In this document: positions 6,260-23,113 of the stretch, piece by piece
How the letters are laid out: each line of letters opens with the position of its first letter
How positions within the stretch are numbered: the first letter of the stretch is position 1
Assembly: GCA_963843415.1 (NCBI GenBank)
Contig: CAWJKD010000002.1
Location: 322,400 to 386,399, forward strand
DNA: 64,000 bases
Source: an uncultured Bacteroidota bacterium
GTDB taxonomy: Bacteria; Bacteroidota; Bacteroidia; Bacteroidales; VadinHA17
Direction: 5' to 3'
The notes under the pieces: model-generated
Seen by the model: only the letters and a program-made list of their open reading frames with translations
Databases searched by the model: none
What the model was told of the DNA's origin: nothing
Program-made: the position numbers and the translations under genes

Positions 6260-7249
6260 ATGAACAGAGTAAAAGAACGAACAATATGGCGCGAATATCT
6301 TCAGATCAGGGAGGTGAATGTATTCATTGCTCTGATCTGCCTTGTAATTCTGATGAGTGTATCAAGTCCGTATTTTCTGAAGCCAGACAATATTTTCAAT
6401 GTCCTCAGGGGTATGTCAACTATAGGAATTATGGCAATCGGGCAGACAATGGTCATCATTACGGGAGGTATAGATCTTTCGGTTGGATCACTGATGGCAG
6501 TATCTTCAATGCTGACAGCAAGGTTAATAACGGTGCATGATGAAAATGCATTTCTATCAGTTCTGTGTGGTCTCTCTTTTGGATTATTGCTGGGAACTAT
6601 AAGCGGTTTGATCATAACCAGGTTAAAAATAAATGCATTCATTACAACGCTGGGAATGCTGAGCATAGGACGAGGCCTTACTTATCTTCTGGCCACAGGG
6701 ATCAAAGGTGGTGTTGCATCGAATATTCCTGTGCAAAATGCATCGATAATTTTTCTGGGTAACGGATATCTGGGACCTGTACCATTCTCTGTTGTGCTCC
6801 TGCTCATTCTGGTAATTCTGGCGGCCGTCTTCTTAAAGCGTACTGTTCCCGGACGGTATATCTATGCTGTAGGGAGTAATGAAAGATCAGCAAGGCTATC
6901 AGGCGTCCCGGTAAATAAAGTACGCGTTTTTGTCTATGCAATAACAGGATTTTTCTGTGCTCTCGCAGGCATCATGGTGTCAGGAAGGTTATCGACTGCT
7001 GCAACAAATATTGGAATCGGGAATGAATTGGATGTCATTGCAGCGGTAGTCATTGGAGGAGCGAGTTTACAGGGCGGAGAAGGAACTGTTACAGGAGCAA
7101 TAATAGGTGCGACAATTATGGCAATAGTTCGGAATGCATTTGTTCTGTTGCACATCCCCAACCATTTTCAAACTATAACAATTGGAGTTGTGATCATTCT
7201 TGCAGTCGGTCTTGATCAAATCTTAAACAGGAAAGCGAAAAATGAATAA
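6260..7249 (+). CDS. Sugar ABC transporter permease (RbsC/AraH, CUT2 type)
   Basis: 329 aa and highly hydrophobic. Ribose-type permease motifs are present: GIDLSVGS and ERSARLSGVPVNKVR. Confidence 0.85.
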   Translation: MNRVKERTIWREYLQIREVNVFIALICLVILMSVSSPYFLKPDNIFNVLRGMSTIGIMAIGQTMVIITGGIDLSVGSLMAVSSMLTARLITVHDENAFLSVLCGLSFGLLLGTISGLIITRLKINAFITTLGMLSIGRGLTYLLATGIKGGVASNIPVQNASIIFLGNGYLGPVPFSVVLLLILVILAAVFLKRTVPGRYIYAVGSNERSARLSGVPVNKVRVFVYAITGFFCALAGIMVSGRLSTAATNIGIGNELDVIAAVVIGGASLQGGEGTVTGAIIGATIMAIVRNAFVLLHIPNHFQTITIGVVIILAVGLDQILNRKAKNE

Positions 7250-8306
7250 TCATCTTAAAATGTACAGAAATATATTTCTGTTGATTCTGGCTCTTTTACC
7301 CCTTAATTATTCATGTCAGAGATCTTCATCTAATAAGAGCTCCCGGGTGTTACCTCCTCCTCCTCCATATTTCTCCGAAGGAAGAGCAGCAGATCAGGGA
7401 AAAGTGATGCCTGTTGAAAACAAAAAGAATGAGAAAATAAGGATTGCTTTTCTGGCAATGGAGACTAATCCGTGGTGGGTCCCTGTCAAAGCAGGAGTTA
7501 TGGAGGCGAAGGATATTCTAAAGGATTTTAATACGGAAGTCGACTGGATAGTGGCGGGCGATCGTCATACTGCGGATGTATTCGGAGTTGCCCTCGAAGC
7601 TGTTATTGCACAAAATTACGATGGTGTTGCATGTCTTGCCGGAGATGAAGGAATGCTTCCGTTCATTCAAAAAGCGGTTGAAGCCAATATTGCTGTTGCA
7701 ACATACAATTCCGAGACTAATAAGGAATCGTCGAGGGCATTTTTTGTCGGAGCCGATAACTATGAACAAGGCAGAATCTGTGGAGAAAAAATGGCTCAGT
7801 TGATCGGCGGAAAGGGAGAAGTAGCGATCATCACAGGTTTTTTTTCAGTGGAGGCCCATGAACTTCGACGGACAGGTTTTAAAGATGTGCTGGCAGAAAA
7901 GTATCCTGAAATTAAAATTGTCGGAGAAGTTGAAAATACTGATCTGGCTGATATAGCGTATACACAGGCTAATGATTTCATGAGCTCTTTCCCTGGTCTT
8001 TCGGGTATTTATATTACTGCAAGCGGACAATTCGGGGCCGCAAATGCGGTTAAAGACTCAGGGAAAAAGAATTCCGTCAGTGTCGTTTGTCATGATTTTT
8101 TACCTGAAACAATGGGACTTGTAAGGGAAGGAGTTATTCAGGGGGTAATAGATCAGAGTACCAGATTACAGGGTCGCGATCCTGTGATCAGGCTTTATAA
8201 TTATATTGTTGGCGGGATTATCCCTCCTTTTGGAAAACTTTTACTGGACACTCCTGTGGCAACTCCTGAAAATATTGACCAGTATTGGCCAGACTCTGAT
8301 GATTAA
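7242..8306 (+). CDS. Sugar ABC transporter substrate-binding lipoprotein (RbsB-like periplasmic binding protein fold)
   Basis: 354 aa. Lipobox LLPLNYSC is followed by a PPPPP linker. The type I PBP-like body includes IAFLAMETNPWW and AVATYNSE. The start overlaps the permease stop by 8 nt. Confidence 0.75.
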   Translation: MNNHLKMYRNIFLLILALLPLNYSCQRSSSNKSSRVLPPPPPYFSEGRAADQGKVMPVENKKNEKIRIAFLAMETNPWWVPVKAGVMEAKDILKDFNTEVDWIVAGDRHTADVFGVALEAVIAQNYDGVACLAGDEGMLPFIQKAVEANIAVATYNSETNKESSRAFFVGADNYEQGRICGEKMAQLIGGKGEVAIITGFFSVEAHELRRTGFKDVLAEKYPEIKIVGEVENTDLADIAYTQANDFMSSFPGLSGIYITASGQFGAANAVKDSGKKNSVSVVCHDFLPETMGLVREGVIQGVIDQSTRLQGRDPVIRLYNYIVGGIIPPFGKLLLDTPVATPENIDQYWPDSDD

Positions 8307-8349
8307 TAATCTGACCAAAAACGTAAGATTATATTAAAGTTGGGAAATC

Positions 8350-9861
8350 ATGTCAGAGCGCTCCGGATATATTCTACAGGCACAAGGCATTTCAAAAAGC
8401 TATGGAGGTGTTCATGCATTGTCAGATGTCGATTTGTCAGTGCTGGGAGGAGAGGTACACGCGGTGGTTGGTGAGAACGGAGCGGGAAAGACAACCCTTA
8501 TGAATATTCTCGGAGGGATCATAAAGCCTGACGAAGGTAAAATAGTATTCAACGGAGAAAAGATAGATCTCAATTCACCCAAGGGGGCTTTTAGAAAAGG
8601 GATCTCAACAATTCATCAGGAGCTGACAATGATTCCTCATTTAAACGTCATGGAGAATATATTCATGGGGGATCTTCAGAAATTCACTTATTCCTCAAAG
8701 GGTATCATCAATCATAATAAACTAGAATATGCTGCAAAAGAAGCTCTCGATTTAATTGAGCTGTCGATTGACCCTCACAGGCTTGTCAAAAGCCTGAGTA
8801 TCTCGGAGCAGCAGGAGATAGAAATTATCAAAGCTGTCTCAGCCGATTCACGGCTTATTATTATGGATGAGCCTAATTCTTCATTAACTGATCCGGAAAC
8901 AAAGCGGCTTTTCAATATTATCAACAAGCTGAAGAAGAGGGGTGTATCTATTGTATATGTATCCCACAAAATTGAAGAAGTTCTGCAAATTGCTGACAGG
9001 ATAACAATATTGCGTGATGGTCGTTCCATAGGGACACTCGGGAGAAGTGAGGCGACTGATGAGCGCTTATTCGGCATGATTGCGGGGAGGGATAAGATTA
9101 AAAAAGAATCCCGCAAGACTAATATGACCGATGAGATACTTCTTTGCGTTAAAGGACTGAACGGTAAGCGGTTCAACGATATCAGCTTTAATCTCAGGAA
9201 GGGCGAAGTGCTCGGATTTTACGGACTTGTAGGGTCTGGCAGAAGCGAACTTGGACGGGCATTGTTCGGAGCGGATAAGATCAACGCCGGGACAATCTCT
9301 CTGGATGGCAAGTCAGTGGTAATAGATTCACCACGGAAAGCGATGGAACTTGGAATAGCAATGGTCCCTGAGGACCGGAAGGAACAAGGTCTGTTCATGA
9401 ACCTGCCGGTTATATCAAATATGACAATCTCGAACCTGCCTGATCTTAGTTATCTGAATTTCCTTATCAGGTCAAAAAAGGAAAAAAGCATAATAAATGA
9501 TTTTATCAGATTGCTCAATATCAGGATGAAACTAAGCAGTCAGCCGATCAAAGCTCTAAGTGGCGGAAATCAGCAAAAAGTTGTTCTGTCCAGATATCTG
9601 ATGATAAAGCCGCGGGTACTTATTTTAGACGAGCCGACACATGGCATTGATGTTGGAGCCAGGGAAGAAGTACATAATCTTATTGAAAAGAGCTCTGCCG
9701 GAGGATTAGGTGTCATCTTTATCTCATCGGAGATGCCTGAAATTATTTCTGTATCAGACAGGATAGCTGTGTTGCACGAAGGTGAGCTGGCAGGTATCTT
9801 CAATCGTGAAGATGTATCTGAAGAAAAGCTTATTGCCTGTGCAACAGGTTACAGGATGTAA
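8350..9861 (+). CDS. Sugar ABC transporter ATP-binding protein with two fused ATPase domains (RbsA/LsrA-like)
   Basis: 503 aa. Walker A GENGAGKTT and GLVGSGRSE; signature-like LSISEQQ and LSGGNQQK; Walker B IIMDEP and LILDEP. Confidence 0.9.
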   Translation: MSERSGYILQAQGISKSYGGVHALSDVDLSVLGGEVHAVVGENGAGKTTLMNILGGIIKPDEGKIVFNGEKIDLNSPKGAFRKGISTIHQELTMIPHLNVMENIFMGDLQKFTYSSKGIINHNKLEYAAKEALDLIELSIDPHRLVKSLSISEQQEIEIIKAVSADSRLIIMDEPNSSLTDPETKRLFNIINKLKKRGVSIVYVSHKIEEVLQIADRITILRDGRSIGTLGRSEATDERLFGMIAGRDKIKKESRKTNMTDEILLCVKGLNGKRFNDISFNLRKGEVLGFYGLVGSGRSELGRALFGADKINAGTISLDGKSVVIDSPRKAMELGIAMVPEDRKEQGLFMNLPVISNMTISNLPDLSYLNFLIRSKKEKSIINDFIRLLNIRMKLSSQPIKALSGGNQQKVVLSRYLMIKPRVLILDEPTHGIDVGAREEVHNLIEKSSAGGLGVIFISSEMPEIISVSDRIAVLHEGELAGIFNREDVSEEKLIACATGYRM

Positions 9862-9872
9862 AAAACAGAGAT

Positions 9873-11387
9873 ATGACTTCAGATGTAGTTATAGGTATAG
9901 ATAGCAGCACAACGGCCACTAAAGTGATAGCATGGGATTGCCTGGGAAACAATATTGCTGAGGCAAGCAGCCCTGTTCCGCTGATCTCCCCAATGTCATG
10001 CTATTATGAACAGAATCCTGACGACTGGTGGCTGTCTGCGGTAAAAGCCCTGAATAGGTTATTGCATCAGATCGATAAAGAACGGGTCGCGGCTCTTTCA
10101 ATCGCAAATCAGAGAGAAACTTTTGTAGCATTGAATAAAGATGGTGAGCCCGTCAGACCCGCCATTATATGGCTTGATGAGCGATGCAAAGAACAGGTGG
10201 ATAAATTCGCCGCGATTATTGGGGAGGATCGGATACACCGGATAACCGGTAAACCCAAAGATTATGCACCTGTGGCTTATCGTCTGGCCTGGATGAAGGA
10301 GCATGAGAACGATCTGTACAGAAAAGTTGACAAATTCTGTGATGTGTTGTCTTACCTGGTCCACAGGTTGACAGGCAATTTTAATACCAGCTGGGCGAGT
10401 GCCGATCCTCTCGGGATTTTCGATCTTGAAAATAAAAAGTGGTCATCTGATATTCTGCAAAAACTTGAAATAGTCACTGATCAGCTGCCTGTTCCATGTT
10501 GTCCGGGAACAGTGATCGGACAGATCACAAAAGCTGCAGCAGAGGCAACAGGATTAATTACCGGTACACCTGTAGTTGCCGGTGGTGGTGATGGTCAGTC
10601 GGCAGGACTGGGTGTTAATGCCTTAACTCCGGAGAGGGCTTACCTGAATCTTGGAACTGCGGTTGTTTCCGGGACGTTTGTTAAAGATTATGTTACTGAT
10701 AAGGCATTTCGCACAATGTCGAGTTGTTCGGATAACGGGTATTATTGTGAGACAAGTTTACGTGCAGGTACATTTCTCATCGACTGGTTGATTCATCAGG
10801 TACTTAAGATTGATACATCTGCACATAAGGATATTTATCAGCTTCTTGAAGAGGAAGCAAGGATGATTCCAGAAGGAAGCGAGGGACTGTTGATACTTCC
10901 ATATTGGAATGCTGTAATGAACCCCCACTGGGACTCTGATGCCCGTGGTTGTATGATAGGTCTTTCGCCGGGTCACCACCGTGGCCATCTTTACAGGGCA
11001 ATTCTTGAAGGAATAGCGATGGAGCAGTCTCTTGCAACAGGATCGGTTGAAAGATCGGTCGGGAGAAAAATAGAAGAATTTGCGCTCATCGGCGGCGGGG
11101 CAAGAAGTGAACTGTGGCGTCAGATTATCGCCGACACCTGCAATAAAAAGATACTTCAAATGGCTTCTGAGGAAGCATCCTCTCTTGGTGCAGGAATCTC
11201 GGCGGCTGTTGCCGTCGGTTGGTACCCGTCATTTGAAGCAGCTGCAAAGAATATGACTCATGTAATAAACGTTACTGAGCCGATACCCCAGAATGTGAAA
11301 CAGTATCAGGATCTGTTATTGATTTATAGTGACATCTACCCGAATAATAAGGGGATCTTTAAAAAGATACGTTCTTTTATATCCTGA
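9873..11387 (+). CDS. FGGY-family carbohydrate kinase (xylulokinase/LsrK-like)
   Basis: 504 aa. The N-terminus IGIDSSTTATKVIAW and later motifs (GGGDGQSAGLG, LIGGGARSELW) are typical of FGGY kinases. It ends in a TGA stop. Confidence 0.85.
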   Translation: MTSDVVIGIDSSTTATKVIAWDCLGNNIAEASSPVPLISPMSCYYEQNPDDWWLSAVKALNRLLHQIDKERVAALSIANQRETFVALNKDGEPVRPAIIWLDERCKEQVDKFAAIIGEDRIHRITGKPKDYAPVAYRLAWMKEHENDLYRKVDKFCDVLSYLVHRLTGNFNTSWASADPLGIFDLENKKWSSDILQKLEIVTDQLPVPCCPGTVIGQITKAAAEATGLITGTPVVAGGGDGQSAGLGVNALTPERAYLNLGTAVVSGTFVKDYVTDKAFRTMSSCSDNGYYCETSLRAGTFLIDWLIHQVLKIDTSAHKDIYQLLEEEARMIPEGSEGLLILPYWNAVMNPHWDSDARGCMIGLSPGHHRGHLYRAILEGIAMEQSLATGSVERSVGRKIEEFALIGGGARSELWRQIIADTCNKKILQMASEEASSLGAGISAAVAVGWYPSFEAAAKNMTHVINVTEPIPQNVKQYQDLLLIYSDIYPNNKGIFKKIRSFIS

Positions 11388-13368
11388 CACCTATAACCAG
11401 TATATCATCCGTCTGATCCTCCTTATACTCTTCCCTCCATGCTTCAATCTCCTCATTCAGTCTGTCACTCTGTTCAGGCATTGATAATTCCTGTATGCTT
11501 GTGAGGAAGGATTTAAACCTGCCACTCTGATATTTTTTACGAAGCTTACCTCCAAACTGATCAATAAAACCATCGGAGAATAAATAAAGTGTATCATCTA
11601 CACTTAATAGAATTTTCTCTGACATAAACTGACTTCTGCCTGTTTCACTTTGCTCTTCCCTCAGATTTCTGGCCTTGTATTCAATTAGTTCACCATCTGA
11701 CACTCTGTATAAGGGATTCATTACGCCTGCATAGGTCACAATATTTGTATTAATATCAAGCACACAAAGAGCTATATCCATATCATCCGACAAACCTGCT
11801 CCTGATGTACCCTGGCCCAGGAACCTGTGTATTTTTGCATATAAATGTTGTAAAATACTATACGGATCAGTCAGTTTAATCTCATTTACTGCCTGGTCGA
11901 GGATACCGTAACCCAGAGTACTTAGGAGCGCTCCGGGGATCCCGTGTCCTGTGCAATCAGCTGCAGCAAATATTACCAGACTACCCTGTCTGCTGAAAAA
12001 GTAGAAATCACCACTGACAATATCCTTGGGTTTAAACAAAACGAAGCTCTCAGGCAGGCACTCACGGATAAAAAGGTCATCAGGCAGATAAGTCCCCTGG
12101 ATACGTCTCGCAATATTATAACTTCCCTCAACTTCCCTGATGGCCTCTTCAATTTTTCTGTTCCTTATCCCGAATATTTTGTCAACTTCAGGAGGTATCG
12201 TGACCATGCTCCTGATCTGTAAATTCATTTCCCTGATTTCATTTAAGATCCTCTGGATATTACCATGAGGTTTGATGGCATATGATAGTTTTCTGATCCT
12301 GTTCGGATTGACAGGATATGCTTCGTAATCAATATCCTTCAAAAGTGAAGGGATCATTCTGACAAGCTCACGGTCTTTTTCTTTTTCAGCTTCAGACAGG
12401 TCTTCATACGGAATGATGCTTGGATGGGTCTTCCTGGTATTATCCTTTGCAGGGCCGAAGAACCAGCCGTGTAGTATTTTATCCCAGCACCATCTTATAT
12501 GTTCAACTTTTGCCATTGTTTCGATCTCTTCTACAGTGAGATGAAGAGCTGCTGATTTATATCCCTTCCCGACTGGGCGTATCTTAAAACCTATTGACAA
12601 CAGCTTGGTCGGGATATGAAATGCATTATCAAGATTTGAGTGTTTGATCTCCTCGGGCAGTTTGTCAAATTCGGTTATATTTTTATCGCCCGTATTGAGG
12701 ATCCATGGAATATAAATTTTCTTTTGAGATCCTGAAGTCTGTTTTCTCATCTCATTCAAATACTTTGAATGGATAACTCTGGCAAGCCTCGCAACCATTT
12801 TATCGTTTATTTCCGTGATCTCCTCAGACCGTATCACTTCATATCCGATTTTTTTCAGCTCAACAGGAATCAGATGATTCAACTCAATGAAAAAGCGTTT
12901 TCTCTTATCCGGTAAATCCTGAAAAGATATCCGGTCAGGATCAGATTCTTTATTTGGTGCATCCGTATGTGCAAGGAGAGATTTTTTCCCCGGGGCTCCT
13001 TCATAGTCAATCCTTGCCATCTGCTCAAGTTCATTATAAGGTATCAGGCATGTCCTGCAGAAATCTCTGTACTGGCGGATACAGAGGTTTAACGACCTGA
13101 GCTTCACAGGTACCTTTAAGGCATATGCATACCAATCAAATTTCTCCTCATCCGAAAGTTTGCTGAACTCTTTTTTGAACGTATATGGCGAAGAAAATAA
13201 GTGTTTAGTGCGCTGAATATCTTTGTAGAAATACCTCGCAATAGAGTCAATGAAGATCTTTCTATGATCGGACCAGTTATTTGACAGATCCTGAATCAGG
13301 TTATTATCAGGATCATAAATAATCTCAGTCCATGGCAGTATTTCATTATTTAAAGCCTGTGTTGTCAT
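11377..13368 (-). CDS. RyR-domain protein with a C-terminal SpoIIE/PP2C-type serine phosphatase domain (SiaA/RsbU-like)
   Basis: 663 aa.
- The RyR-like block is MAKVEHIRWCWDKILHGWFFGPAKDNTRKTHPSIIPYEDLSEAEKEKDRELVRMIP.
- A weaker upstream copy reads ARLARVIHSKYLNEM...NLDNAFHIPTKLL.
- C-terminal PP2C/SpoIIE motifs are SGDFYFF, ADCTGHGIPGALLS and SDGFIDQFGG. Confidence 0.75.
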   Translation of the reverse strand: MTTQALNNEILPWTEIIYDPDNNLIQDLSNNWSDHRKIFIDSIARYFYKDIQRTKHLFSSPYTFKKEFSKLSDEEKFDWYAYALKVPVKLRSLNLCIRQYRDFCRTCLIPYNELEQMARIDYEGAPGKKSLLAHTDAPNKESDPDRISFQDLPDKRKRFFIELNHLIPVELKKIGYEVIRSEEITEINDKMVARLARVIHSKYLNEMRKQTSGSQKKIYIPWILNTGDKNITEFDKLPEEIKHSNLDNAFHIPTKLLSIGFKIRPVGKGYKSAALHLTVEEIETMAKVEHIRWCWDKILHGWFFGPAKDNTRKTHPSIIPYEDLSEAEKEKDRELVRMIPSLLKDIDYEAYPVNPNRIRKLSYAIKPHGNIQRILNEIREMNLQIRSMVTIPPEVDKIFGIRNRKIEEAIREVEGSYNIARRIQGTYLPDDLFIRECLPESFVLFKPKDIVSGDFYFFSRQGSLVIFAAADCTGHGIPGALLSTLGYGILDQAVNEIKLTDPYSILQHLYAKIHRFLGQGTSGAGLSDDMDIALCVLDINTNIVTYAGVMNPLYRVSDGELIEYKARNLREEQSETGRSQFMSEKILLSVDDTLYLFSDGFIDQFGGKLRKKYQSGRFKSFLTSIQELSMPEQSDRLNEEIEAWREEYKEDQTDDILVIGVRI

Positions 13369-13370
13369 TT

Positions 13371-14288
13371 TTAAACATCACTGCTGCTCTTCTTTATGAA
13401 TTCAAACGGGAATTTTGACATCCTCGATAACTCTTTACCGACCTCAAGCATATCCATGTCATCTGCTTCATAATGCCATCTGATTGCAGTGTCTTTTCCT
13501 TTTGAAGGAATTGTAGCTATCTTTTTGCAAAAATCCAGTATGTATTTTGCTGACGAAGAGTTAAAATATTCAAAATCAAAGTCAAAAACAACCGGATCCT
13601 TCCTTTCATTATATCTCACCAGATGCTGCGAATAATCGTCCATCCAACTTAGTATTTCCCCATAGAAATTGCCTACATCAGGAGGTCGCGATTCGCCTGA
13701 AATTTGAAACTTACTGTTTTCAGGATCGAGAATTACTCCCGGTGAATTTGTTGTCTGATCAATAATTAACTTTCTCATGACAGATTTATTTATTGATATA
13801 TCTATATTGAATTCAGAGATGTTCTTATTAATACTCTGGAAGGTGAAATCAATTTTATTCCCCGACTTTAATCTTAGTATAATAAAGCCCAGTCCTGCAC
13901 CATTTTCAAAATCCAGCGGTTCCTTGTTGATCATATGCTCGTACATAACAGTAAGGACTTCACGTTCCATCTGATTAATATGGGTAAGCTTGTCTGTAAG
14001 CTTCTTTCTTTCAACTTCTTCAATGGGATTGCCGGCTCTGATAACAATCTTGTCATTTTTTTCTTCAACTGAGAGAAAGGGTTGAAATTTCAGATTTTCG
14101 GGGAATTGTTTTACCGAATGTCTTGCTATATTTTCAAGACACTCAACAACTATTGCATATACCCTTTTCCCGGTTGTTTTTTGTAATCTGGTGAACTCCC
14201 GGGTGTTCTTCAATTTTATTAAGAGGTGATCAATCTTATCGTGATCGACAGGTCCTTTGTAACTCAGGATTATCCCTGACTCATGCAT
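13371..14288 (-). CDS. Fusion of a SiaB-like kinase domain (DUF6272, GHKL-like) and a SiaC-like regulatory phosphoprotein domain (DUF1987)
   Basis: 305 aa.
- The N-terminal half (GIILSYKGPVD...VVECLENIARHS...ENGAGLGFIILRLKSGNKIDF) matches the SiaB-family pattern as I recall it.
- The C-terminal half (SPGVILDPENSKFQISGESRPPDVGNFYGEILSWMDDY...FDFEYFNSSSAKYILDF...IRWHYEADDMDMLEVGKE...FPFEFI) matches DUF1987 closely.
- The gene ends 3 nt upstream of the phosphatase gene. Confidence 0.7.
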   Translation of the reverse strand: MHESGIILSYKGPVDHDKIDHLLIKLKNTREFTRLQKTTGKRVYAIVVECLENIARHSVKQFPENLKFQPFLSVEEKNDKIVIRAGNPIEEVERKKLTDKLTHINQMEREVLTVMYEHMINKEPLDFENGAGLGFIILRLKSGNKIDFTFQSINKNISEFNIDISINKSVMRKLIIDQTTNSPGVILDPENSKFQISGESRPPDVGNFYGEILSWMDDYSQHLVRYNERKDPVVFDFDFEYFNSSSAKYILDFCKKIATIPSKGKDTAIRWHYEADDMDMLEVGKELSRMSKFPFEFIKKSSSDV

Positions 14289-14496
14289 TTTACTTTGTTT
14301 TATCCTTATGAATATGAAAATAATGATTGCCGGCCGAATGATTTAACAGTCACGTTTGTAGAGCCACCAAAAATATTTTTCTATAATCATAATATTTGCT
14401 AACTTGAATATCTTTAAGCAAAGATAAACTATAAGATTCTGATAGGGTATATCGACTGGTTTTATTTTCTGGCAGAATTCACTTTATTTAATATCT

Positions 14497-17400
14497 ATGA
14501 GCGAATCCATTTTAAAAGCGTTGATGCAGCTCTTTGCACTTATGGTCGACGTACATGATGATACTGTCATCACAGTCTCAGAAAGAGATATCGTAAGATC
14601 GTTCCTGTCACGTCTTCTTAATAATGAGTTGGTTGACAGGTATTTGAAAATGTTTGAAGAATTCCTTCAGCTTTATAATACAGAGAAGATAGTTAAAAAC
14701 AGTATAAAGGACAGGAAGCGCACTTCACTGAATGCCGTGAGAATACTTGCAATATGTGAAAAGATTAACAACGAGCTCCAGCAGAAACAGAAAATATATG
14801 TTCTGGTACAGCTGATGGACTTTATATCTTCAGGTAAAGAAATAACGGAAAACAAGCTGGACTTTATTCAGACTGTCGCAAATGCATTTTATATATCTGA
14901 GAATGAATATCAGGACATTAAAAGCTTCATCCTTGGAACTTTATATGATATTCCGGGGAAGGGGAAAGTGCTGATTATTGATAATAAGAAGGAAAAAGAT
15001 CTTGAAGATGTAAAGCATATCTTCAACGAAAACCTGAAAGGCCGGATCTCATTTCTTAATATTTCCAGTACAAATACATACATTTTGCGATACTCAGGTG
15101 ACGGAGATCTCTATCTTAATGGTCAGCACATTCATGAAAGCCAGACCTATATTTTTGATCATGGTTCATCAGTCAGGGGATCAGGGATAAATCCTGTGTA
15201 TTATACAGAAATTGTAAGCCTTATCTCAGAAGCGACAGATGGATTAAAAGTAATTTTTGAAGCCCATGATGTCTCTTTTGAATTCACGAACAGCGAAAAT
15301 GGCATTCATAATCTGGAGTTTTATGAAGAATCAGGCAAACTTGTCGGTATCCTGGGCGGAAGCGGGGTTGGCAAATCCACTACCTTAAGTGTTCTCAGCG
15401 GAACTTTGGAACCCCAGAACGGAAACGTAATGATAAATGGATACAACCTTTACATTGATAATGAAAGGGACAGTCTGAAAGGGATCATCGGTTTTGTTCC
15501 GCAGGACGATCTTTTAATAGAGGAGCTGACAGTTTATCAGAACCTTTATTATAATGCAAGGATGTGCCTCGATAAATTCCCTGAAAACAAGATAGTTGAG
15601 ATAGTAAACAAGACACTTTCCGATCTCGATCTTGATGAAATCAAAGATCTGAAAGTAGGTAATCCCCTAAAAAAAATAATTAGCGGCGGACAAAGAAAAA
15701 GAGTCAATATAGCCCTTGAACTCCTTCGGGAGCCAACAATCCTCTTTGTTGATGAGCCAACCTCAGGTCTCTCCTCAGTCGATTCGGAAATCGTAATGAA
15801 CCTGCTCAAGGAACAGACATATATCGGGAAGCTTGTTATTGTGAATATCCATCAGCCATCTTCTGAACTGTACAAGATGTTCGATAAAATAATGATTATT
15901 GACAAAGGTGGGTACCAGATCTATTATGGAAATCCAACAGAAGCCATTGTCTATTTTAAAACCCAAAGCAATCACCCTAATCCTGATGAAGATCAATGTG
16001 TTAAATGCGGAAATATAAACACCGACCAGATCCTTCAGATAGTGGAGGCAAAGGTCGTTGATGAGCATGGAAAAGCAACTCAGATAAGGAAAGTCACACC
16101 ACTGGAATGGGCTGAAAAGTTCAGGCAGATCGTTCCCGAGGTAAAGGGAAAGGTTACATCTGAGAAGCAAAAACTTCCGGAAAATAATTATAGCATCCCC
16201 GGATTATTAAAACAATCAAGGATATTCTTTACACGTGATGTATTATCAAAACTAGCCGACAAACAATATATCCTGATAGGCTTGCTTGGTCCACCGTTTC
16301 TTGCCTTTCTTCTTGCATATTTCACCAGATATTCAGAGGAATCGTCATATAAATTCAGTGAAAATGAAAATATCCCGGCATTCATGTTCATGTGTGTTAT
16401 AACTTCAATGTTCTTCGGGTTGATGATCAGTTCGGAAGAAATAGTGAAAGACAGGAAGATACTAAAAAGGGAATCATTTCTTAACCTGAGCTGGTTCAGT
16501 TACCTTAATTCGAAGATCATGATAATGTTCATACTGTCAGCTGTTCAGACTTTATCCTTTGTCCTTATCGGTAATTTTATTCTCGGAATTAAGGGAATGA
16601 CGCTGAGCTACTGGCTTGTTCTGTTTACCACCTCCTGTTTTGCAAATGTGCTGGGCTTAAATATTTCATCAGCATTTAATTCAGTAATTACGATTTACAT
16701 TCTGATTCCGTTTGTAATCATCCCTCAGCTTTTGTTCAGCGGAGTTCTTGTAAAGTTTGATAAGCTTCATATAAGTAAATTTTCCACCCGTGAATTTGTT
16801 CCGGTGATAGGAGATGTAATGACTGCCCGATGGGCGTTTGAGGCACTTTCGGTACATCAGTTCAAGGACAATAAGTTTGAAAAGAATTTTATAGAATATG
16901 ACATTGCAGAAAGCCAGAATAACTATTACGCATCTTTCCTGATTGATAATTTAAAACTTAAGCTTCAGGAGTTCAATTCGGATAAGGAAAATCCTGATCG
17001 TTTAAATGATCTTAAAGACAATTTTGCAAAATTTAGTCATTATATGAATGATTTATCCTTACTGGCACATTTATCAACAGGTACCTGGAAAGATTCACTT
17101 AACATTGAATTCTTTAATCCGGCGATAAGCAAAAAAGCCGAAAATCATCTTAACTCTTTAAAATACAAATTCATCCAATTCAGGAAGAGGGCCACAAATT
17201 TAAGAGATTCTGTATCAGGATCACTTATTGAGCTGTTGGGCAGAGATCAACTGGTTGTACTTCAGGATGATTATGTGAATTTAAGACTTTCAGACATTAT
17301 CCTTGACAGACCAACGCTTGATGCTTCTTACGAAACTCATAACAGAATAATTCAAAAATATGAACCGGGCTTTATGAAGCCCGAAGCAAAATTCGGGAGG

Positions 17401-17577
17401 GCTCATTTTTTTGCTCCCTTCAAAAAAACAGGAAATATCGAGATTGATACTTACTGGTTTAATCTGATAGTTATCTGGATAGTATCGATATTATTGTACC
17501 TTATTTTGTATTATAAGATATTGCAGAGGTTTGTCACATTTTACGGAAATCTTCGCATTAAACCACCCGAAAAATAA
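14497..17577 (+). CDS. ABCG-like (ATPase + ABC-2 permease) half-transporter with a ~270-aa N-terminal TerB-like/beta-rich region and a long C-terminal extension
   Basis: 1026 aa. Walker A GGSGVGKST, signature ISGGQRKRV and Walker B LFVDEPTSGLS. About six TM helices lie at residues 590-790. The C-terminal extension ends in one more TM helix (FNLIVIWIVSILLYLILYY). Confidence 0.8.
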   Translation: MSESILKALMQLFALMVDVHDDTVITVSERDIVRSFLSRLLNNELVDRYLKMFEEFLQLYNTEKIVKNSIKDRKRTSLNAVRILAICEKINNELQQKQKIYVLVQLMDFISSGKEITENKLDFIQTVANAFYISENEYQDIKSFILGTLYDIPGKGKVLIIDNKKEKDLEDVKHIFNENLKGRISFLNISSTNTYILRYSGDGDLYLNGQHIHESQTYIFDHGSSVRGSGINPVYYTEIVSLISEATDGLKVIFEAHDVSFEFTNSENGIHNLEFYEESGKLVGILGGSGVGKSTTLSVLSGTLEPQNGNVMINGYNLYIDNERDSLKGIIGFVPQDDLLIEELTVYQNLYYNARMCLDKFPENKIVEIVNKTLSDLDLDEIKDLKVGNPLKKIISGGQRKRVNIALELLREPTILFVDEPTSGLSSVDSEIVMNLLKEQTYIGKLVIVNIHQPSSELYKMFDKIMIIDKGGYQIYYGNPTEAIVYFKTQSNHPNPDEDQCVKCGNINTDQILQIVEAKVVDEHGKATQIRKVTPLEWAEKFRQIVPEVKGKVTSEKQKLPENNYSIPGLLKQSRIFFTRDVLSKLADKQYILIGLLGPPFLAFLLAYFTRYSEESSYKFSENENIPAFMFMCVITSMFFGLMISSEEIVKDRKILKRESFLNLSWFSYLNSKIMIMFILSAVQTLSFVLIGNFILGIKGMTLSYWLVLFTTSCFANVLGLNISSAFNSVITIYILIPFVIIPQLLFSGVLVKFDKLHISKFSTREFVPVIGDVMTARWAFEALSVHQFKDNKFEKNFIEYDIAESQNNYYASFLIDNLKLKLQEFNSDKENPDRLNDLKDNFAKFSHYMNDLSLLAHLSTGTWKDSLNIEFFNPAISKKAENHLNSLKYKFIQFRKRATNLRDSVSGSLIELLGRDQLVVLQDDYVNLRLSDIILDRPTLDASYETHNRIIQKYEPGFMKPEAKFGRAHFFAPFKKTGNIEIDTYWFNLIVIWIVSILLYLILYYKILQRFVTFYGNLRIKPPEK

Positions 17578-17643
17578 TTTTCATTTTCCGGCCGCTGTTT
17601 TAATCAGTTTTTGCTTATTGCCGGATTAAGGCTAATTTTGATC

Positions 17644-18621
17644 ATGAAACATTCGGAAATGAACCTGATACAAACGACAGATAAAATGATCGCTTCAAGT
17701 CTGTTATTACTTTTATTCCTTGATGCAGTCAGTTGCAGTAATCCGGTTGACGAAAAAAAGGTTTCACAGGAAGTTAAAAGTGTTAAGTCGACTGGTTATA
17801 ATTTATCGGTTCCCGATAAAACAATTCTTTTGCCGGGGGAACTTCACGAGATATCGGGAATAACTTTGATTGATCCATCTTCTCTGGCATGTGTTCAGGA
17901 TGAAAATGGGGTGATTTTCATATTTGACCTCTTGAAAAATGAAATAAGGGATCATCTGTTTTTTTATACCGACGGAGACTATGAAGGAATAGCCAGGGTC
18001 GATAATAAATATTATGTTCTGAGAAGCGATGCAACATTGTTTGAAATTTCAGATAACAGGTCTTTAAATACTGAACCGAAAATTTATTCAACAGGTATTC
18101 CGGCAAGCGATAGTGAAGGCCTCTGTTACGATAAGAAAACTAAAAGACTTCTGATCGCTCACAAAAGTAAACTTGAAAAAAGTCCTGAATTTAAAGACCG
18201 AAGTCTTATTTACGGATTTGATCTGAGATCCGGGACCCTTGTTGAACAACCGGTTTATGATTTTGATATGCAGGCAATAACGAGGTTCGCTCTGGATAAT
18301 AAGATTATTGTGCCGGATACGGACAAAAAGAAATCGAAAAAAGGTAAAAAGAAATCTAAGGAAAAAGAACCGGAAATTAATTTAAGACCTTCTGCCATCG
18401 GTATTCACCCTGTTACAAATAAATTATTTGTTCTCTCTGCCATGGAGAATAAGTTGTTCATATTCAGCAGGAACGGGACTATTGAACATATAGAAAAGCT
18501 CGATAAAGATATATTCAATATGCCTGAAGGGATAACCTTTTTTGATAACGGAGATATGCTTATATCAAATGAAGGTCAGAATAGTATAGCTACATTGTTG
18601 AGATTTAACTATAAACAGTAA
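17644..18621 (+). CDS. SdiA-regulated/YjiK-like beta-propeller domain protein (exported)
   Basis: The ATG at 17644 gives MKHSEMNLIQ... followed by a hydrophobic signal; the ORF-track TTG at 17611 is less likely. Motifs ISGITL, EGIA, SEGLCYD, PSAIGIHPVTNKLFVLS and PEGITF fit the family. It also has a Lys-rich insert, DKKKSKKGKKKSKEKE. Confidence 0.65.
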   Translation: MKHSEMNLIQTTDKMIASSLLLLLFLDAVSCSNPVDEKKVSQEVKSVKSTGYNLSVPDKTILLPGELHEISGITLIDPSSLACVQDENGVIFIFDLLKNEIRDHLFFYTDGDYEGIARVDNKYYVLRSDATLFEISDNRSLNTEPKIYSTGIPASDSEGLCYDKKTKRLLIAHKSKLEKSPEFKDRSLIYGFDLRSGTLVEQPVYDFDMQAITRFALDNKIIVPDTDKKKSKKGKKKSKEKEPEINLRPSAIGIHPVTNKLFVLSAMENKLFIFSRNGTIEHIEKLDKDIFNMPEGITFFDNGDMLISNEGQNSIATLLRFNYKQ

Positions 18622-18678
18622 TAGAATAAAATACCAAATCCTTATTCTCGCTCTCCGGAGCAATGAAAAGAAGCGGAT

Positions 18679-19275
18679 TCAATCCCTGTAATAAATTTCC
18701 AGAACCGCAACTTTTTCTTTAAAATCAATTTTTCTGATCTTTATTCTCACAATTTCTCTCCCGGTCAGCTCTGATACATCTTTTAACAGCTTTTGCTTTT
18801 TCCCTGCTTTGAGCAAATCGAGATTCTCGTAAACAATGCAGTGTGTTGTGCTATTGTATTTAATTGAGAATTTTTCAAGAATAAGTGCTGAAAGACAGAT
18901 TACTGAATCGAAGATCACAACTGCAATCCCGGGGATTTTCCCTAGCTTTAATGAAGTTATCACTGAAATCCCGATAACTGCAAAGATATAGGACATATCC
19001 TTTAGGCTAAAATTCCTTGTTCTGAACCTGAGTATGGCAAATATAGCAAACAGGCCAAAACCCATACCCATTTGCACAAACGCTGAATCCATCGCTGCCG
19101 CAAGGAAAAAGACTACTATACCCATCAGGAAAAAAGTAAAAACGAACTTTTCTTTCTTGGAGTACCTGAAATAAACAAGACGGATAAGTATGAATAGAAA
19201 AAACATGGTTATTACAAACCGTATTAACAACTCCCAAAAGTTCGGGTTACTCAGATCAAAGTAATCTTTAAACAT
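18679..19275 (-). CDS. DUF4956 domain membrane protein
   Basis: 198 aa with four or five TM helices. AILRFRTRNFSLKDMSYIF resembles the conserved xRFRTxxKxxxD block of DUF4956, a family usually found with CotH and VTC genes. Confidence 0.65.
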   Translation of the reverse strand: MFKDYFDLSNPNFWELLIRFVITMFFLFILIRLVYFRYSKKEKFVFTFFLMGIVVFFLAAAMDSAFVQMGMGFGLFAIFAILRFRTRNFSLKDMSYIFAVIGISVITSLKLGKIPGIAVVIFDSVICLSALILEKFSIKYNSTTHCIVYENLDLLKAGKKQKLLKDVSELTGREIVRIKIRKIDFKEKVAVLEIYYRD

Positions 19276-19294
19276 TGTATTAATTATTATAGAG

Positions 19295-20671: not shown

Positions 20672-23113
20672 ATGTCCAGTTTAATAGCAGGTTACGAATA
20701 TGATATCTTTATCAGCTACCGCCAGAAAGACAATAAATATGACGGATGGGTTACTGAGTTTGTGGATAATCTACAAAGGGAACTGGAAGCAACATTTAAA
20801 GAGGATATCAGTGTTTATTTTGATATCAATCCTCATGACGGGCTATTAGAGACTCATGATGTTGATGCCTCGCTGAAGGAGAAAATGAAGTGTCTGATCT
20901 TTATTCCGATTATTTCACGTACTTATTGCGATCCTAAATCTTTTGCGTGGGAACATGAATTTAAAGCCTTTATTGAACAGGCTTCAAAGGATCAATTCGG
21001 ACTTAAGGTTAAGTTGCCAAATGGGAATGTTGCAGGCAGAGTTTTACCGGTCCGCATACATCAGCTTGATAATGATGACATTAAATTGTGTGAGTCCCTT
21101 CTGGGAGGTGTGCTCAGGGGAGTTGAATTCATTTACAAATCTGCCGGTGTAAACCGGCCTTTAAGATTAAAAGAAGATAATCCGCACGATAATCTTAACA
21201 GAACAATTTACCGCGATCAGATAAATAAAGTAGCAAATTCAATCAGTGAGATTATCTCCGGCCTGAAAATAATTCAACCTTCTCCTACAGGGTTAAAGAC
21301 TGAAGCAATTACTGCTTCTGATGCCGGAACTTCAGAAGAATCTGATGCCATGCACAATCCGATTGGAAAAGTGTCTGATAAACGACATTTAGCAAAGTTT
21401 TATGAGCCAAAAAGAAGAAGATTGATCTATTCATTAACATCTTCCGCAGTTGTTATCCTGTCGCTCGTAACACTGCTCCTTTTTTCCAGTGGGAGTACTT
21501 TCCCGTTCTCTAAACGGGATTGGGTATTAATAACTGATTTTGAGAACCTTACAAAAGACAGCGTTTTTAATAAATCTCTTTATACTGCATTCTCCCTTAG
21601 TACAAGTCAATCAAGATATGTTAACGTTTTTCCAAGATCAAGGATGATTGAAGCCCTTGAAATGATGGATCTTAAGGATCAGACATCAGTCAACGAGATA
21701 ACAGGAAGGGAGATGGCAGAGCGTAAAGGGATTAACATTTATATCGTACCCAGCATCAGTGAAGTCGGAAAAAGATATGTAATTACTGCAAAGATTATTG
21801 ATGTGAAATCAGATGATCTTCTTAGTTCAGAAATATTATATGCAGAAACGAAGGATGCAATTCTGCCGGTCTTGGATAAGTTGTGCAGAAAACTGAGAAG
21901 AACGCTGGGGGAATCAAGATATAATATTGCAACTCAGGATAAACCATTAAAGACAGTTACAACCTCATCTCTGGAAGCTTTAAAGTTATATTCCCTGGGT
22001 ATTGATCATCATCTCAAGCTTGATTTCGTTGGAGCCAGGGGTTATTATGAAAACGCATTGAAGATCGATTCAGGATTTACTTCTGCAAAGGCTTCACTCG
22101 GATCTATTCTGTTGGAGAGATTCAACGTTCAGGATAAAGGACGGGAGTTATTGGATGAAGCAGTTAAATCAGCTGATAACCTTACTGACAGAGAAAAATA
22201 TGGGATAATTGCATTCCATGCTGTAAATGTTGAAAAAGATATTAAAAAGGGAATTGAAAATACAAGGGTGCTGTCAAGATTGTATCCTGACGATCCGGTT
22301 CCGCATAATAACCTTGGATATTATTATAAGTTGACCGGACAGTTTGAAGACGCTGTCAGAGAGTATAAGATAGCTATACGCTTAGATCCTGCCCAGGCTC
22401 TGAGCTATGGTGGCATCTTATGGATTTATTTTGAGGATCTGGGAAGGGTCGACTCACTGTTAATATGGTCCGGTAAGATGATCGCGGATAATCCGCAGAA
22501 CGCCTGGGGGTATATGTATCAGGGTTCTGCATGGTTCATGATGGACAGCCTTGATAAGGCTGAAGCCTCTCTTGTGAAATCCAGGGAGATTAATCCCCGG
22601 CTGACCCTGAACCTTTTTATCCTCAGCCATACTTATCGCCGCTCAGGGCGTTATAATGATGCAGTTAGTATTCTTAAAAACATTCTTGAAATAGAGCCGA
22701 CAGAATTCGCAGCTTATTATGTGCAGGGTGTAGTATATCAGTCAATGGGAAAGCCTGAAGAAGCCAGGGAATATTTTACCACTTTCAGAGAGAAAATTTC
22801 GGAATTCTGGATAAAATGGTGGCCCGATGATGTTGGTACATATGCCTCAATTGCTGCAGTGTCGGCAAGGCTTGGCGATATGGCATCTTCTGAAGAGATG
22901 CTTAAGAAAGCTCTTGAAATAGATTCCACAGCGCATGAACGCTTTGCTGAAGTCCTTTGTTTACAGGGGAAAGTGTCTGAAGCTCTTGATGAACTGACAA
23001 AAGACCTGGATAATGGGTACCGAAACCTTTACCAGTTAAAGGCAGCTCCTGACCTTCAGATATTGGATTATGATGTCCGGTTCCGTAACCTGCTTGAAAA
23101 ATATTTTAAATAG
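20672..23113 (+). CDS. TIR domain - TM helix - periplasmic TolB-N-like module - TPR repeat protein
   Basis: 813 aa.
- N-terminal TIR hallmarks: YDIFISYRQKDN, FIPIISRTYCDPKSFAWEHEF.
- One TM helix: SAVVILSLVTLLLF.
- These are followed by TPR-like repeats: YYENALKIDSGF, YKIAIRLDPAQA, KNILEIEPTEF.
- It is a paralog of 56901-59222. Confidence 0.8.
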   Translation: MSSLIAGYEYDIFISYRQKDNKYDGWVTEFVDNLQRELEATFKEDISVYFDINPHDGLLETHDVDASLKEKMKCLIFIPIISRTYCDPKSFAWEHEFKAFIEQASKDQFGLKVKLPNGNVAGRVLPVRIHQLDNDDIKLCESLLGGVLRGVEFIYKSAGVNRPLRLKEDNPHDNLNRTIYRDQINKVANSISEIISGLKIIQPSPTGLKTEAITASDAGTSEESDAMHNPIGKVSDKRHLAKFYEPKRRRLIYSLTSSAVVILSLVTLLLFSSGSTFPFSKRDWVLITDFENLTKDSVFNKSLYTAFSLSTSQSRYVNVFPRSRMIEALEMMDLKDQTSVNEITGREMAERKGINIYIVPSISEVGKRYVITAKIIDVKSDDLLSSEILYAETKDAILPVLDKLCRKLRRTLGESRYNIATQDKPLKTVTTSSLEALKLYSLGIDHHLKLDFVGARGYYENALKIDSGFTSAKASLGSILLERFNVQDKGRELLDEAVKSADNLTDREKYGIIAFHAVNVEKDIKKGIENTRVLSRLYPDDPVPHNNLGYYYKLTGQFEDAVREYKIAIRLDPAQALSYGGILWIYFEDLGRVDSLLIWSGKMIADNPQNAWGYMYQGSAWFMMDSLDKAEASLVKSREINPRLTLNLFILSHTYRRSGRYNDAVSILKNILEIEPTEFAAYYVQGVVYQSMGKPEEAREYFTTFREKISEFWIKWWPDDVGTYASIAAVSARLGDMASSEEMLKKALEIDSTAHERFAEVLCLQGKVSEALDELTKDLDNGYRNLYQLKAAPDLQILDYDVRFRNLLEKYFK

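Follow-up and report, generated by a model that had tools for sequence, protein, structure and literature searches.

We analysed a stretch of 64,000 nucleotides (nt) from an uncultured Bacteroidales bacterium (the window; all coordinates are positions in it), which encodes a protein that joins SiaB-like and SiaC-like halves, a phosphatase with RyR repeats and an ATP-binding cassette (ABC) exporter. The fusion (305 aa) is encoded at 13371-14288 and the phosphatase (663 aa) at 11377-13368, both on the minus strand. Both open reading frames were confirmed, and every motif quoted from them in an earlier reading of the same DNA that was made from the letters alone (the sequence-only reading) is present in the two translations. 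As that reading had stated, the phosphatase gene lies directly downstream of the fusion gene; at the junction, GTT TAA aa ATG, the spacer is 2 nt, and the ATG starts at the third nt past the stop codon. On the other side of a divergent intergenic region of 208 bp (14289..14496), which separates the switch operon from the exporter gene, an ABCG-type half-transporter of 1026 aa is encoded on the plus strand (14497..17577). The intergenic region probably holds promoters for both directions, and an Rfam search of 9-19 kb for a regulatory RNA in this region gave no family.

Related loci were collected as two sets. For the species set, one genome per species was scanned, which gave 78 loci, essentially all of them from metagenome-assembled genomes (MAGs) of uncultured Bacteroidales/Bacteroidota; for the metagenome set, contigs were scanned with the N-terminal domain of the exporter as query. 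The divergent layout with a gap of ~100-250 bp was found again in most loci, and everything besides the trio of exporter, switch and phosphatase varies from locus to locus. In total, we give the core of our interpretation, i.e. that the locus encodes a Sia-type switch that lacks a cyclase and is coupled to the exporter, a probability of about 0.55.

The SiaB-SiaC fusion and the RyR-repeat phosphatase

The fusion consists of a GHKL-type Ser/Thr kinase half and a STAS-like phosphoprotein half, and matches in Pfam, in NCBIfam and among solved structures agree on this assignment. The kinase half (residues 1-168; 13785..14288, minus strand) contains the N-box 'VECLENIARHS' with E49, N53 and H57 as well as the G-box 'NGAGLGF', and the SiaC half (residues 171-305; 13371..13778, minus strand) starts at M171 (13776-13778), the ancestral SiaC start codon. 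In Pfam, residues 35-160 match DUF6272 with 93.7 bits (cutoff 26.6) and residues 176-299 match SiaC (PF09345, DUF1987) with 100.1 bits (cutoff 24.5). In NCBIfam, the N-terminal half scores 96.2 with the SiaB_fam_kinase model NF038262 and exceeds the cutoff of 85. The equivalog models for the individual Pseudomonas proteins scored below their cutoffs, i.e. 59 for SiaC (cutoff 150), 164.5 for SiaA (NF038263; cutoff 700) and likewise a sub-cutoff value for SiaB. Therefore, the window proteins are members of these families and not orthologues of the Pseudomonas proteins. The sequence-only reading had proposed a SiaB-like kinase joined to a DUF1987/SiaC-like half and had named four domain families by which to check its assignments (DUF1987, DUF6272, SpoIIE and RyR); all four were recovered with scores far over the curated cutoffs.

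Searched against the PDB, a profile of the fusion family matches SiaB (6kko_A) and SiaC (6k4f, 6kko_C) only. The AlphaFold model of the fusion has a predicted local distance difference test score (pLDDT) of 88 and a predicted template-modelling score (pTM) of 0.65. The solved structures closest to this model are SiaB 6kko_A, with a template-modelling (TM) score of 0.78, and SiaC, with TM scores of 0.85-0.88 (7e6g_D, 0.88); its next structural neighbours are the kinases SpoIIAB, RsbW and UsfX.

The residues required for a phosphorylation cycle can be followed through these alignments. The kinase half aligns with residues 17-178 of the SiaB chain 6kko_A, and E49 in 'VECLEN' aligns with Glu61 of SiaB, which is the predicted catalytic residue of that kinase (PMC7647112). 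Among 34 divergent fusions, E49, N53 and G134 are invariant. In SiaC, T68 is the proven phosphosite that is phosphorylated by SiaB and dephosphorylated by SiaA (PMC7647112). In a profile alignment, T68 of the SiaC motif 'YLNTSS' pairs with S244 of the fusion motif 'YFNSSSAKY' (13557-13559, minus strand), which is the predicted phospho-acceptor, and this position is Ser or Thr in 34/34 fusions (27 S, 7 T) at identities down to 23%. As judged from these alignments, the catalytic residues are kept and there is no sign of a dead enzyme among the switch proteins; the fusion and the phosphatase together are a Sia-type Ser/Thr phospho-switch with a predicted reversible cycle. Partner switching by the fused protein is putative.

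In the species set, the kinase and SiaC are fused in 47 loci and encoded by separate adjacent genes in 21. Five split loci have a siaB-like gene with the end '...NK*' and then, 3 nt on and in frame, 'ATG AGA AAG' (MRK); among the other split loci, two have an ATGA overlap and two have spacers of 39-41 nt. The junction in the window reads '...INK-SV-MRKLII...', i.e. the sense codons TCT GTC stand where the stop codon and the 3-nt spacer were and the frame is uninterrupted. The SiaC start Met of the split loci corresponds to M171 within the fusion and is nearly invariant. The split-locus junctions, set beside the 'NKSVMRK' of the window, indicate that the fusion arose by loss of the siaB stop codon, and hence by read-through, from siaB and siaC genes that were tightly packed.

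Among 5.8 billion proteins searched, there were 679 relatives of the fusion, the best 120 of which are all ~300 aa long with both Pfam domains, and the identical 305-aa protein was independently called on a 1.6-Mb contig. These results bear on the explanation that two genes only look fused through an error of assembly or a frameshift, which the sequence-only reading had raised against itself. Relatives encoded by two genes exist and three loci (L066, L071 and L078) look frameshifted, as that explanation would have it; however, the 47 fused loci come from different species, the homologues number in the hundreds and the reading frame across the window junction is unbroken, which together with the identical protein on the 1.6-Mb contig makes an artefact scarcely credible.

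An exhaustive search, made in 1.8 billion cluster representatives, gave 4,969 relatives. In a Pfam scan of sampled relatives, the DUF6272-SiaC architecture was found in several lineages at 25-31% identity, and the other architectures in the sample were DUF6272x2-SiaC (~500 aa), DUF6272x2, SiaCx2 and DUF6272-SiaCx3 (654 aa) (examples of architectures are proteins P0364, P0506, P0395, P0379, P0365, P0431 and P0440). The sequence-only reading was thus right that kinase and substrate are one polypeptide, but the arrangement is less exotic than it had implied, being a product of stop-codon read-through and one of many DUF6272/SiaC combinations.

Two further arrangements were observed among the relatives. 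Free SiaC genes adjoin SiaB-SiaC fusion genes in distant lineages, and one lies ~4 kb off in one close relative (L165, 7592-7969; L169, 2400-2780; L163, 3479-3889). Where a free SiaC exists, the fused SiaC half might be regulatory and the free SiaC might carry the output. At locus L171 (3069-9582), an N-terminally extended SiaB-SiaC fusion of 523 aa is encoded with a REC-SpoIIE phosphatase, after which come genes for a histidine kinase and for two sensor proteins with FIST domains. This arrangement would be a two-component input to the same switch.

The phosphatase is a soluble protein with RyR repeats and a PP2C (SpoIIE/SiaA-like) domain, and no transmembrane segment was predicted in it. Pfam SpoIIE matches residues 465-662 with 54.7 bits, and residues 402-662 match the crystal structure of the SiaA PP2C domain (6k4e; 6k4e_A residues 43-299) with E=4e-32; both matches bear out the C-terminal SpoIIE/PP2C domain noted from the letters alone. 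In the alignment with 6k4e, the catalytic domain comprises residues 402-663 (11377..12165, minus strand) and contains the metal motifs SGDFYFF, DCTGHG, DGFIDQFGG and QTDDI; the metal-binding motifs are at least 90% conserved among 38 orthologous phosphatases.

The canonical RyR/R12 repeat occupies residues 278-352 (12313..12537, minus strand), and Pfam RyR (PF02026) matches residues 282-345 with 58 bits (cutoff 27.4). It also matches eukaryotic RyR structures and RyR-like structures of B. thetaiotaomicron. When this repeat was compared with the N-terminal profile in hhalign, residues 110-179 matched with 97.5% probability (E=9e-12), residues 187-266 matched weakly (39%, E=3e-4) and residues 68-99 left a trace only; the first two are listed as degenerate RyR-like repeats (12571..13041, minus strand). 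The N-terminal 350 residues of the phosphatase therefore read, in profile terms, as a predicted tandem array of ~3-4 RyR repeats, most of them degenerate. Of the one clear and one weaker RyR domain of the sequence-only reading, the clear one was recovered as such, but there is more than one weak repeat.

A preprint of May 2026 describes phage RyR/R12 domains that bind or cleave 2'/3' cyclic ADP-ribose (2'/3'cADPR) signals, and RyDEP contacts its ligand through H75, W78, H100 and D117, residues that are reportedly kept throughout the Pfam family as well as in the R12 domains of animal RyR, which have adenine ligands (PMC13232231). In the phosphatase, H290, W293, H315 and D332, matched by motif and spacing, have a spacing (+3, +25, +42) identical to that of the RyDEP contacts, and each of the four is present in 38/38 orthologues. 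From this spacing and conservation, it is a reasonable inference that the RyR repeat binds an adenine- or ADP-ribose-type nucleotide. The earlier statement that the ligand of RyR domains in bacteria is unknown is in part outdated, because phage RyR domains bind or cleave cADPR signals (PMC13232231).

The phosphatase beside the switch is of the RyR-SpoIIE type in 37/64 loci, where its gene is directly downstream, and another SpoIIE protein in 18/64, and 9/64 have no adjacent SpoIIE protein. The alternative proteins are REC-SpoIIE, Reg_prop/Y_Y_Y-SpoIIE, HAMP-SpoIIE and TPR-SpoIIE. The RyR type is the only phosphatase type at these loci that is without a membrane or receiver sensor of its own.

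The divergent ABC exporter and the missing cyclase

The sequence-only reading had reported that there is no GGDEF gene in the 64 kb. The motif GG[DE]EF is absent from all six frames of the window, phmmer with two GGDEF domains found none in the window at E<=1, and Pfam scans of the module-adjacent proteins and of most large window proteins gave no GGDEF. Moreover, phmmer with GGDEF probes, the sequences of which were confirmed as Pfam GGDEF (E ~1e-50), found none in 81 related loci (1e-5) nor in 80 related loci (1e-4). Motif scan, control-checked phmmer and Pfam scans agree and rule out a hidden GGDEF; in ~160 related loci no GGDEF gene was found adjacent to the module or elsewhere in the locus.

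The divergent gene encodes a half-transporter that is matched by Pfam ABC_tran (PF00005) and ABC2_membrane (PF01061), and the core of which matches TIGR00955 with E=2e-74. It consists of an N-terminal extension, a nucleotide-binding domain (~255-490), an ABC-2 membrane domain (573-758) and a C-terminal extension. The last of these (residues 800-1026, ~225 aa) has no Pfam match and ends in an extra predicted transmembrane helix (~990-1008).

In AlphaFold and Foldseek analyses, the cytoplasmic N-terminal extension (14497..15180, plus strand) is composed of a TerB-like bundle (residues 3-146) and an FHA-like beta domain (residues 158-228). The AlphaFold model of residues 1-250 has a pLDDT of 84 and a pTM of 0.82, and its helical part has seven helices. 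The bundle resembles P. gingivalis PG1108 (2h5n), with a weak match to Pfam TerB (E=0.0014). For the beta part, the top Foldseek matches are all FHA domains, with probabilities of 0.9-1.0, weak E-values (0.02-0.5) and TM scores of 0.3-0.5. Pfam FHA has no match in the extension, and by inspection the conserved residues of the beta domain (N208, G209, G223, S224 and R227) lack the canonical FHA set GR...SxxH...NG.

Among the loci with at least 3.4 kb of upstream DNA, an orthologue of the exporter (1250-1800 bits) is divergently adjacent to the switch in 57/65. At least two of the loci that lack an intact adjacent exporter (L051 and L065) retain exporter fragments. The exporter is thus a more constant neighbour of SiaB/SiaC than any given phosphatase type. 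In the reverse direction, a scan with profile hidden Markov models (HMMs) and no positional filter found SiaB/C beside this transporter family in 45/70 loci; an earlier scan with single-sequence phmmer and a strand/distance filter had undercounted SiaB/C near distant exporters. SiaB/C is placed divergent-upstream of the exporter, convergent-downstream (L155 and L161) or ~5 kb upstream (L153 and L159), and this adjacency, kept through rearrangements, argues for a functional link. Within the bundle, the residues S69, K74, R75 and S77 of the motif 'S....KR.SL' (residues 69-78; nt 14701-14730) are conserved to at least 85% where the exporter is associated with SiaB/C and vary in the other exporters, a comparison that is confounded by shared ancestry. 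The motif, which looks basic and contains Ser, is a candidate contact surface and could serve for docking or be phosphorylated.

Altogether, conservation of the neighbourhood points to the exporter as the best candidate for the output of the switch. The sequence-only reading had concluded that the downstream target is not c-di-GMP synthesis and is otherwise unknown; its first half agrees with the absence of a cyclase, but for the second half there is now a strong candidate in the adjacent exporter, as found in the 57/65 loci.

The remaining genes of the window were annotated as follows. On one side of the trio, the phosphatase gene and a convergent FGGY sugar-kinase gene (9873-11387) share 11 nt at their 3' ends (11377-11387); the sugar-kinase gene is the last gene of a sugar ABC-uptake operon (6260-11387). 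On the other side, a cluster at 17611-24365 encodes an SdiA-regulated-like protein (17611-18621), a DUF4956 membrane protein (18679-19275), a secreted protein of 355 aa without a Pfam match (19295-20362) and a CotH kinase-like protein (23070-24365). The pair of the DUF4956 gene and the 355-aa gene was seen again in 20/78 related loci; at locus L050, genes for a 336-aa SdiA-regulated-like protein, a DUF4956 protein and a ~355-aa protein sit directly after the fusion gene and replace the phosphatase. Further on, 25842-32947 contains the gene for a 2026-aa SprB-repeat cargo protein of the type IX secretion system, which has a CHU_C sorting domain, and behind it a PorP/SprF gene. These two genes confirm that the host belongs to the Bacteroidota. 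A caspase-domain (Peptidase_C14) protein is encoded close to the end of the window (62292-63449). Among the related loci, a contig of a MAG labelled Chloroflexota (L038; JBLNAO010000339.1) bears a typical Bacteroidales locus of exporter, fusion and RyR phosphatase together with a TIR-like gene, and this contig is probably mis-binned.

The TIR-like membrane protein, the proposed mechanism and its rivals

Within the 17611-24365 cluster, 20672..23113 (plus strand) encodes an 813-aa membrane protein that starts 'YDIFISYRQKD...' and consists of a TIR-like domain, a transmembrane helix and TPR repeats. The TIR-like domain comprises residues 1-170 (20672-21181, plus strand). Pfam TIR_2 matches 12/12 orthologues tested, with a best E-value of 4.7e-5, all sub-threshold in Pfam terms; a profile of the domain has plant L6 TIR domains as its best matches in the PDB (E=0.017), and the NCBIfam model 'TIR-like protein FxsC' weakly matches a paralogue in the window (E=0.003). 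E96 is invariant and lies in the motif 'SFAWxxEF'. The single transmembrane helix (251-269) is preceded by a KRRR patch and followed by ~540 extracytoplasmic residues with TPR repeats. The body of the protein (residues 253-564) aligns with E=4e-60 to TIGR04510, 'putative peptide modification system cyclase' (positions 215-523 of 814); therefore, the sensor body is common to that receptor family and the TIR-like domain stands where the family has an N-terminal part that is not matched. This suggests a family of membrane receptors with swapped cytoplasmic signalling domains.

The TIR-like gene is associated with the RyR type of phosphatase, which fits the domain logic of the loci, the RyR type being the one that lacks a sensor of its own. 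In all loci, it was found in 34/68 of the RyR type and 2/90 of the others, which have another phosphatase type or none (Fisher p=2e-13); with one genome per species in 24/43 and 2/35 (p=2e-6); and in metagenome contigs in 10/25 and 0/55 (p=2e-6), all of them statistics that are inflated by the shared ancestry of the loci. Among RyR-type loci that reach at least 2.7 kb past the phosphatase, a TIR-like gene lies no more than 600 nt from its 3' end in 15/42, with 12 on the same strand, and the gaps between the phosphatase and a nearby TIR-like gene are ~4-260 nt.

In the mechanism that we propose, the kinase half would phosphorylate the SiaC half at S244 and the downstream PP2C would remove the phosphate. 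The unphosphorylated SiaC half, or the kinase half freed from the SiaC half, would bind the TerB-like/FHA-like extension of the exporter and alter transport, a docking step that is modelled on the binding and activation of SiaD by unphosphorylated SiaC (PMC8457831). The RyR repeats would bind or cleave an adenine/ADP-ribose-type nucleotide and in this way control the phosphatase; more speculatively, this nucleotide would come from the TIR-like domain on the cytoplasmic side of the TPR membrane receptor with which the phosphatase co-occurs. The relay would then run from an extracytoplasmic cue through the TIR-like receptor, the nucleotide, the RyR-PP2C phosphatase and the dephosphorylated SiaB~C protein to the exporter, which would be turned on or off. 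The full four-step chain from TIR through RyR-PP2C and SiaB~C to the exporter is doubtful. Stated more broadly, as a chromosomal, non-defence second-messenger pathway in Bacteroidales in which an NAD-derived nucleotide from the TIR-like domain of a transmembrane TPR receptor is read, and possibly hydrolysed, by RyR-PP2C, which flips the fused switch that gates an exporter, the proposal is tentative and on balance unlikely to hold in all its parts.

Several observations weigh against coupling of the switch to the exporter or against the TIR-like input. Adjacency of genes is not proof of physical interaction between their products, and the homologues are without exception from MAGs of uncultured organisms or from metagenomes. 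One transporter subclade (25/70 loci) has no SiaB/C within the retrieved DNA yet carries the same N-terminal extension, and the extension therefore has a function that is independent of the switch. Distant SiaB-SiaC fusions lie in surroundings other than the exporter, i.e. beside a Y_Y_Y-SpoIIE phosphatase and a free SiaC, beside a sacsin-like ATPase, or beside a REC-SpoIIE protein with a histidine kinase and FIST sensors; hence, the idea that the fusion always accompanies the exporter was rejected, and the exporter coupling is limited to this clade. Binding of phospho-SiaC by the FHA-like domain of the exporter was set aside because the domain has no canonical pThr residues and no Pfam FHA match and because the phosphosite is a Ser. 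The interdomain geometry in the model of the fusion is uncertain (pTM 0.65), which bears on whether phosphorylation would occur in cis or in trans. As for the TIR-like protein, Pfam TIR_2 scores only 18 bits on residues 12-103 for a cutoff of 28 (E=0.003-0.006 in the window proteins). TIR NADases have their catalytic Glu in a W-x-x-x-E motif; judged by this motif, E96 lies about in its place and is a putative counterpart. Only half of the RyR-type loci have a TIR-like gene within reach. Finally, the window encodes a second TIR-like protein of the same build (773 aa; 56901-59222, minus strand), which shares ~77% identity with the 20672-23113 protein over the first 170 residues. No RyR, SiaB/C or exporter gene adjoins the gene of this second protein, and the TIR-like family thus has members beyond the module.

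Two alternatives accept a functional switch and place its output elsewhere. The exporter could be merely co-regulated with the switch through the shared divergent promoter region, or it could act upstream as a sensor of flux or substrate, as Bce-type transporters signal to their kinases, with the output of the switch encoded elsewhere. Outputs of partner switches are often unlinked, many exporter orthologues have the same N-terminal extension and no adjacent switch, six to eight switch loci have no exporter, and the distant fusions have other neighbours, including the extra free SiaC genes as possible real carriers of the output. However, the exporter is the most conserved neighbour of the switch across 42-75% identity and is kept through rearrangements, and no other effector, be it a sigma factor, a cyclase or a transcription factor, recurs at the loci; we therefore consider it unlikely that the exporter is not the target. 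The output could instead be that of a classical anti-sigma partner switch, in which the kinase half holds a sigma factor and frees it when the dephosphorylated SiaC half binds. The structural neighbours of the kinase half that come after SiaB, namely the anti-sigma kinases SpoIIAB, RsbW and UsfX, would fit such a role. But no sigma factor gene is conserved at the loci, the kinase family is SiaB/DUF6272 and not RsbW, the substrate is a DUF1987 and not a canonical STAS protein, and the one characterised member acts through SiaC on an enzyme and not on a sigma factor (PMC8457831), all of which renders this version highly improbable.

Two other alternatives concern the input. Instead of reading a signal made by a TIR-like enzyme, the RyR repeats could bind a general metabolite (ATP, ADP or ADP-ribose, reflecting energy or NAD status) or act as a protein-protein or dimerisation module; the TIR-like neighbour would then be an abundant protein of the membrane with paralogues, and its proximity a matter of inherited synteny. 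The R12 domain of human RyR3 binds adenine nucleotides (cited in PMC13232231) and the Sia system of P. aeruginosa responds to carbon availability (PMC7647112), both of which agree with this alternative, as do the sub-threshold TIR assignment, the presence of a TIR-like gene near only about half of the RyR-type loci and the unlinked second paralogue. Set against it are the specificity of the association for the RyR type (34/68 vs 2/90), which is seen in two independent datasets, the frequent position of the TIR-like gene on the same strand at operon-like spacing, and the invariance of all four H/W/H/D residues, among them the catalytic dyad of RyDEP; overall, we regard a general-metabolite or structural role of the repeats as possible and rather less than even. 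Far less probable is a Thoeris-type anti-phage defence with a TIR generator, an RyR receiver and an ABC membrane effector. It would accord with bacterial TIR signalling being known so far almost only from defence and being countered by phages with RyR-domain proteins (PMC13232231), and a caspase-domain protein is encoded elsewhere in the window. Against this, PADLOC had no match for the fusion, the phosphatase or the TIR-like N terminus and gave only a match of the TPR region to a candidate family and generic ABC-ATPase matches. The locus lies on the chromosome, in synteny between species (42-77% identity) and outside any variable defence island; its neighbours are housekeeping genes (lysyl-tRNA synthetase, FGGY kinase and uracil phosphoribosyltransferase). 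Moreover, the TIR-like protein, the TPR region of which is large and extracytoplasmic, has the look of a transmembrane receptor, and a systematic survey of TIR defence systems makes no mention of RyR, PP2C or ABC partners.

Significance and relation to known systems

The Sia switch is known from one organism and with one output, the synthesis of c-di-GMP. The ~160 relatives analysed here show that its core of kinase, phosphatase and phosphoprotein is a portable module; a large group of uncultured Bacteroidales probably has it coupled to an ABC exporter in place of a cyclase. The input of the phosphatase is swappable (RyR, REC, HAMP, Y_Y_Y propeller or TPR), and the genes for kinase and substrate fuse readily by loss of a stop codon, so that the fusion itself is ordinary. 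What is new is the conserved wiring of switch and exporter as well as the specific association of RyR and TIR-like proteins. In open-access PMC and bioRxiv, we found no paper on DUF6272 proteins, on SiaB-SiaC fusions, on RyR-PP2C phosphatases or on any connection of a Sia switch with an ABC exporter; DUF6272, PF09345, PF19788 and 'SiaC-like' had no literature matches there, and DUF1987 led to the SiaC-SiaD paper alone. The locus gives a testable context for what cellular bacterial RyR domains bind and for TIR-like enzymes as ordinary signalling enzymes outside immunity. If the proposed relay were true, cellular bacterial RyR domains would have a physiological role as receptors of TIR signals, TIR-nucleotide signalling would extend beyond immunity to ordinary transduction, and both would echo the long-debated link between cADPR and the ryanodine receptor in animals.

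The closest known system is SiaABCD of P. aeruginosa (PA0172-PA0169). The same three families occur in both, with a SiaB-type GHKL kinase and a SiaA-type PP2C that toggle a hydroxyl residue of SiaC, and the phospho-residue lies at the N terminus of helix alpha2 in both, i.e. T68 in P. aeruginosa SiaC and the predicted S244 here. Whereas kinase and substrate are separate in SiaABCD and form and release a complex, they are one polypeptide here and split in 21 related loci. SiaA carries its own N-terminal sensor region, which is made up of a transmembrane part and a HAMP domain; the phosphatase here is soluble and has RyR repeats in that place. The systems also differ in output. SiaABCD has the GGDEF cyclase SiaD, which unphosphorylated SiaC binds and activates (PMC8457831), whereas the module here is without a GGDEF protein and has an ABC exporter as its conserved neighbour. 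Other partner switches with an enzyme as output are HptB-HsbR-HsbA-HsbD and BgrSTUWV (cited in PMC8457831); these differ in having canonical STAS antagonists, and the output of both is a diguanylate cyclase.

For the input side, the comparison is with RyDEP and other phage RyR proteins (PMC13232231), which have the PF02026 repeat in common with the phosphatase, including an identical spacing of His, Trp, His and Asp. RyDEP is a small phage protein that stands alone and acts on Thoeris signals by destroying or sequestering them, whereas here an array of repeats is fused to a PP2C domain in a cellular operon, and the RyR repeat presumably acts as a sensor domain. With Thoeris and other TIR systems the locus might have a logic in common, in which an NAD-derived nucleotide made by a TIR enzyme is read by a dedicated effector domain. 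In contrast to those systems, the TIR-like domain here is divergent and sits on a transmembrane TPR receptor, and the reader would be a phosphatase and not a SIR2/SLOG or Macro effector.

Two proteins of M. tuberculosis resemble parts of the module. In Rv1364c, phosphatase, kinase/anti-sigma and antagonist domains are combined in one self-phosphorylating polypeptide, the output of which is probably a sigma factor. This protein is a precedent for fused components of a partner switch, but it is built from the RsbU/RsbW/RsbV (STAS) families, its fusion also takes in the phosphatase, and neither an exporter nor an RyR domain belongs to it. Rv1747 is an ABCG-like exporter with N-terminal FHA domains that is regulated by Ser/Thr phosphorylation. 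Compared with Rv1747, the FHA-like domain here is minimal (~70 aa), has no recognisable pThr residues and is preceded by a TerB-like bundle, and the linked kinase is of the GHKL SiaB type and not of the Hanks type; the likeness is that in both cases an ABC-2/ABCG-type exporter has an FHA-fold cytoplasmic module at its N terminus and is tied to a Ser/Thr phosphorylation system.

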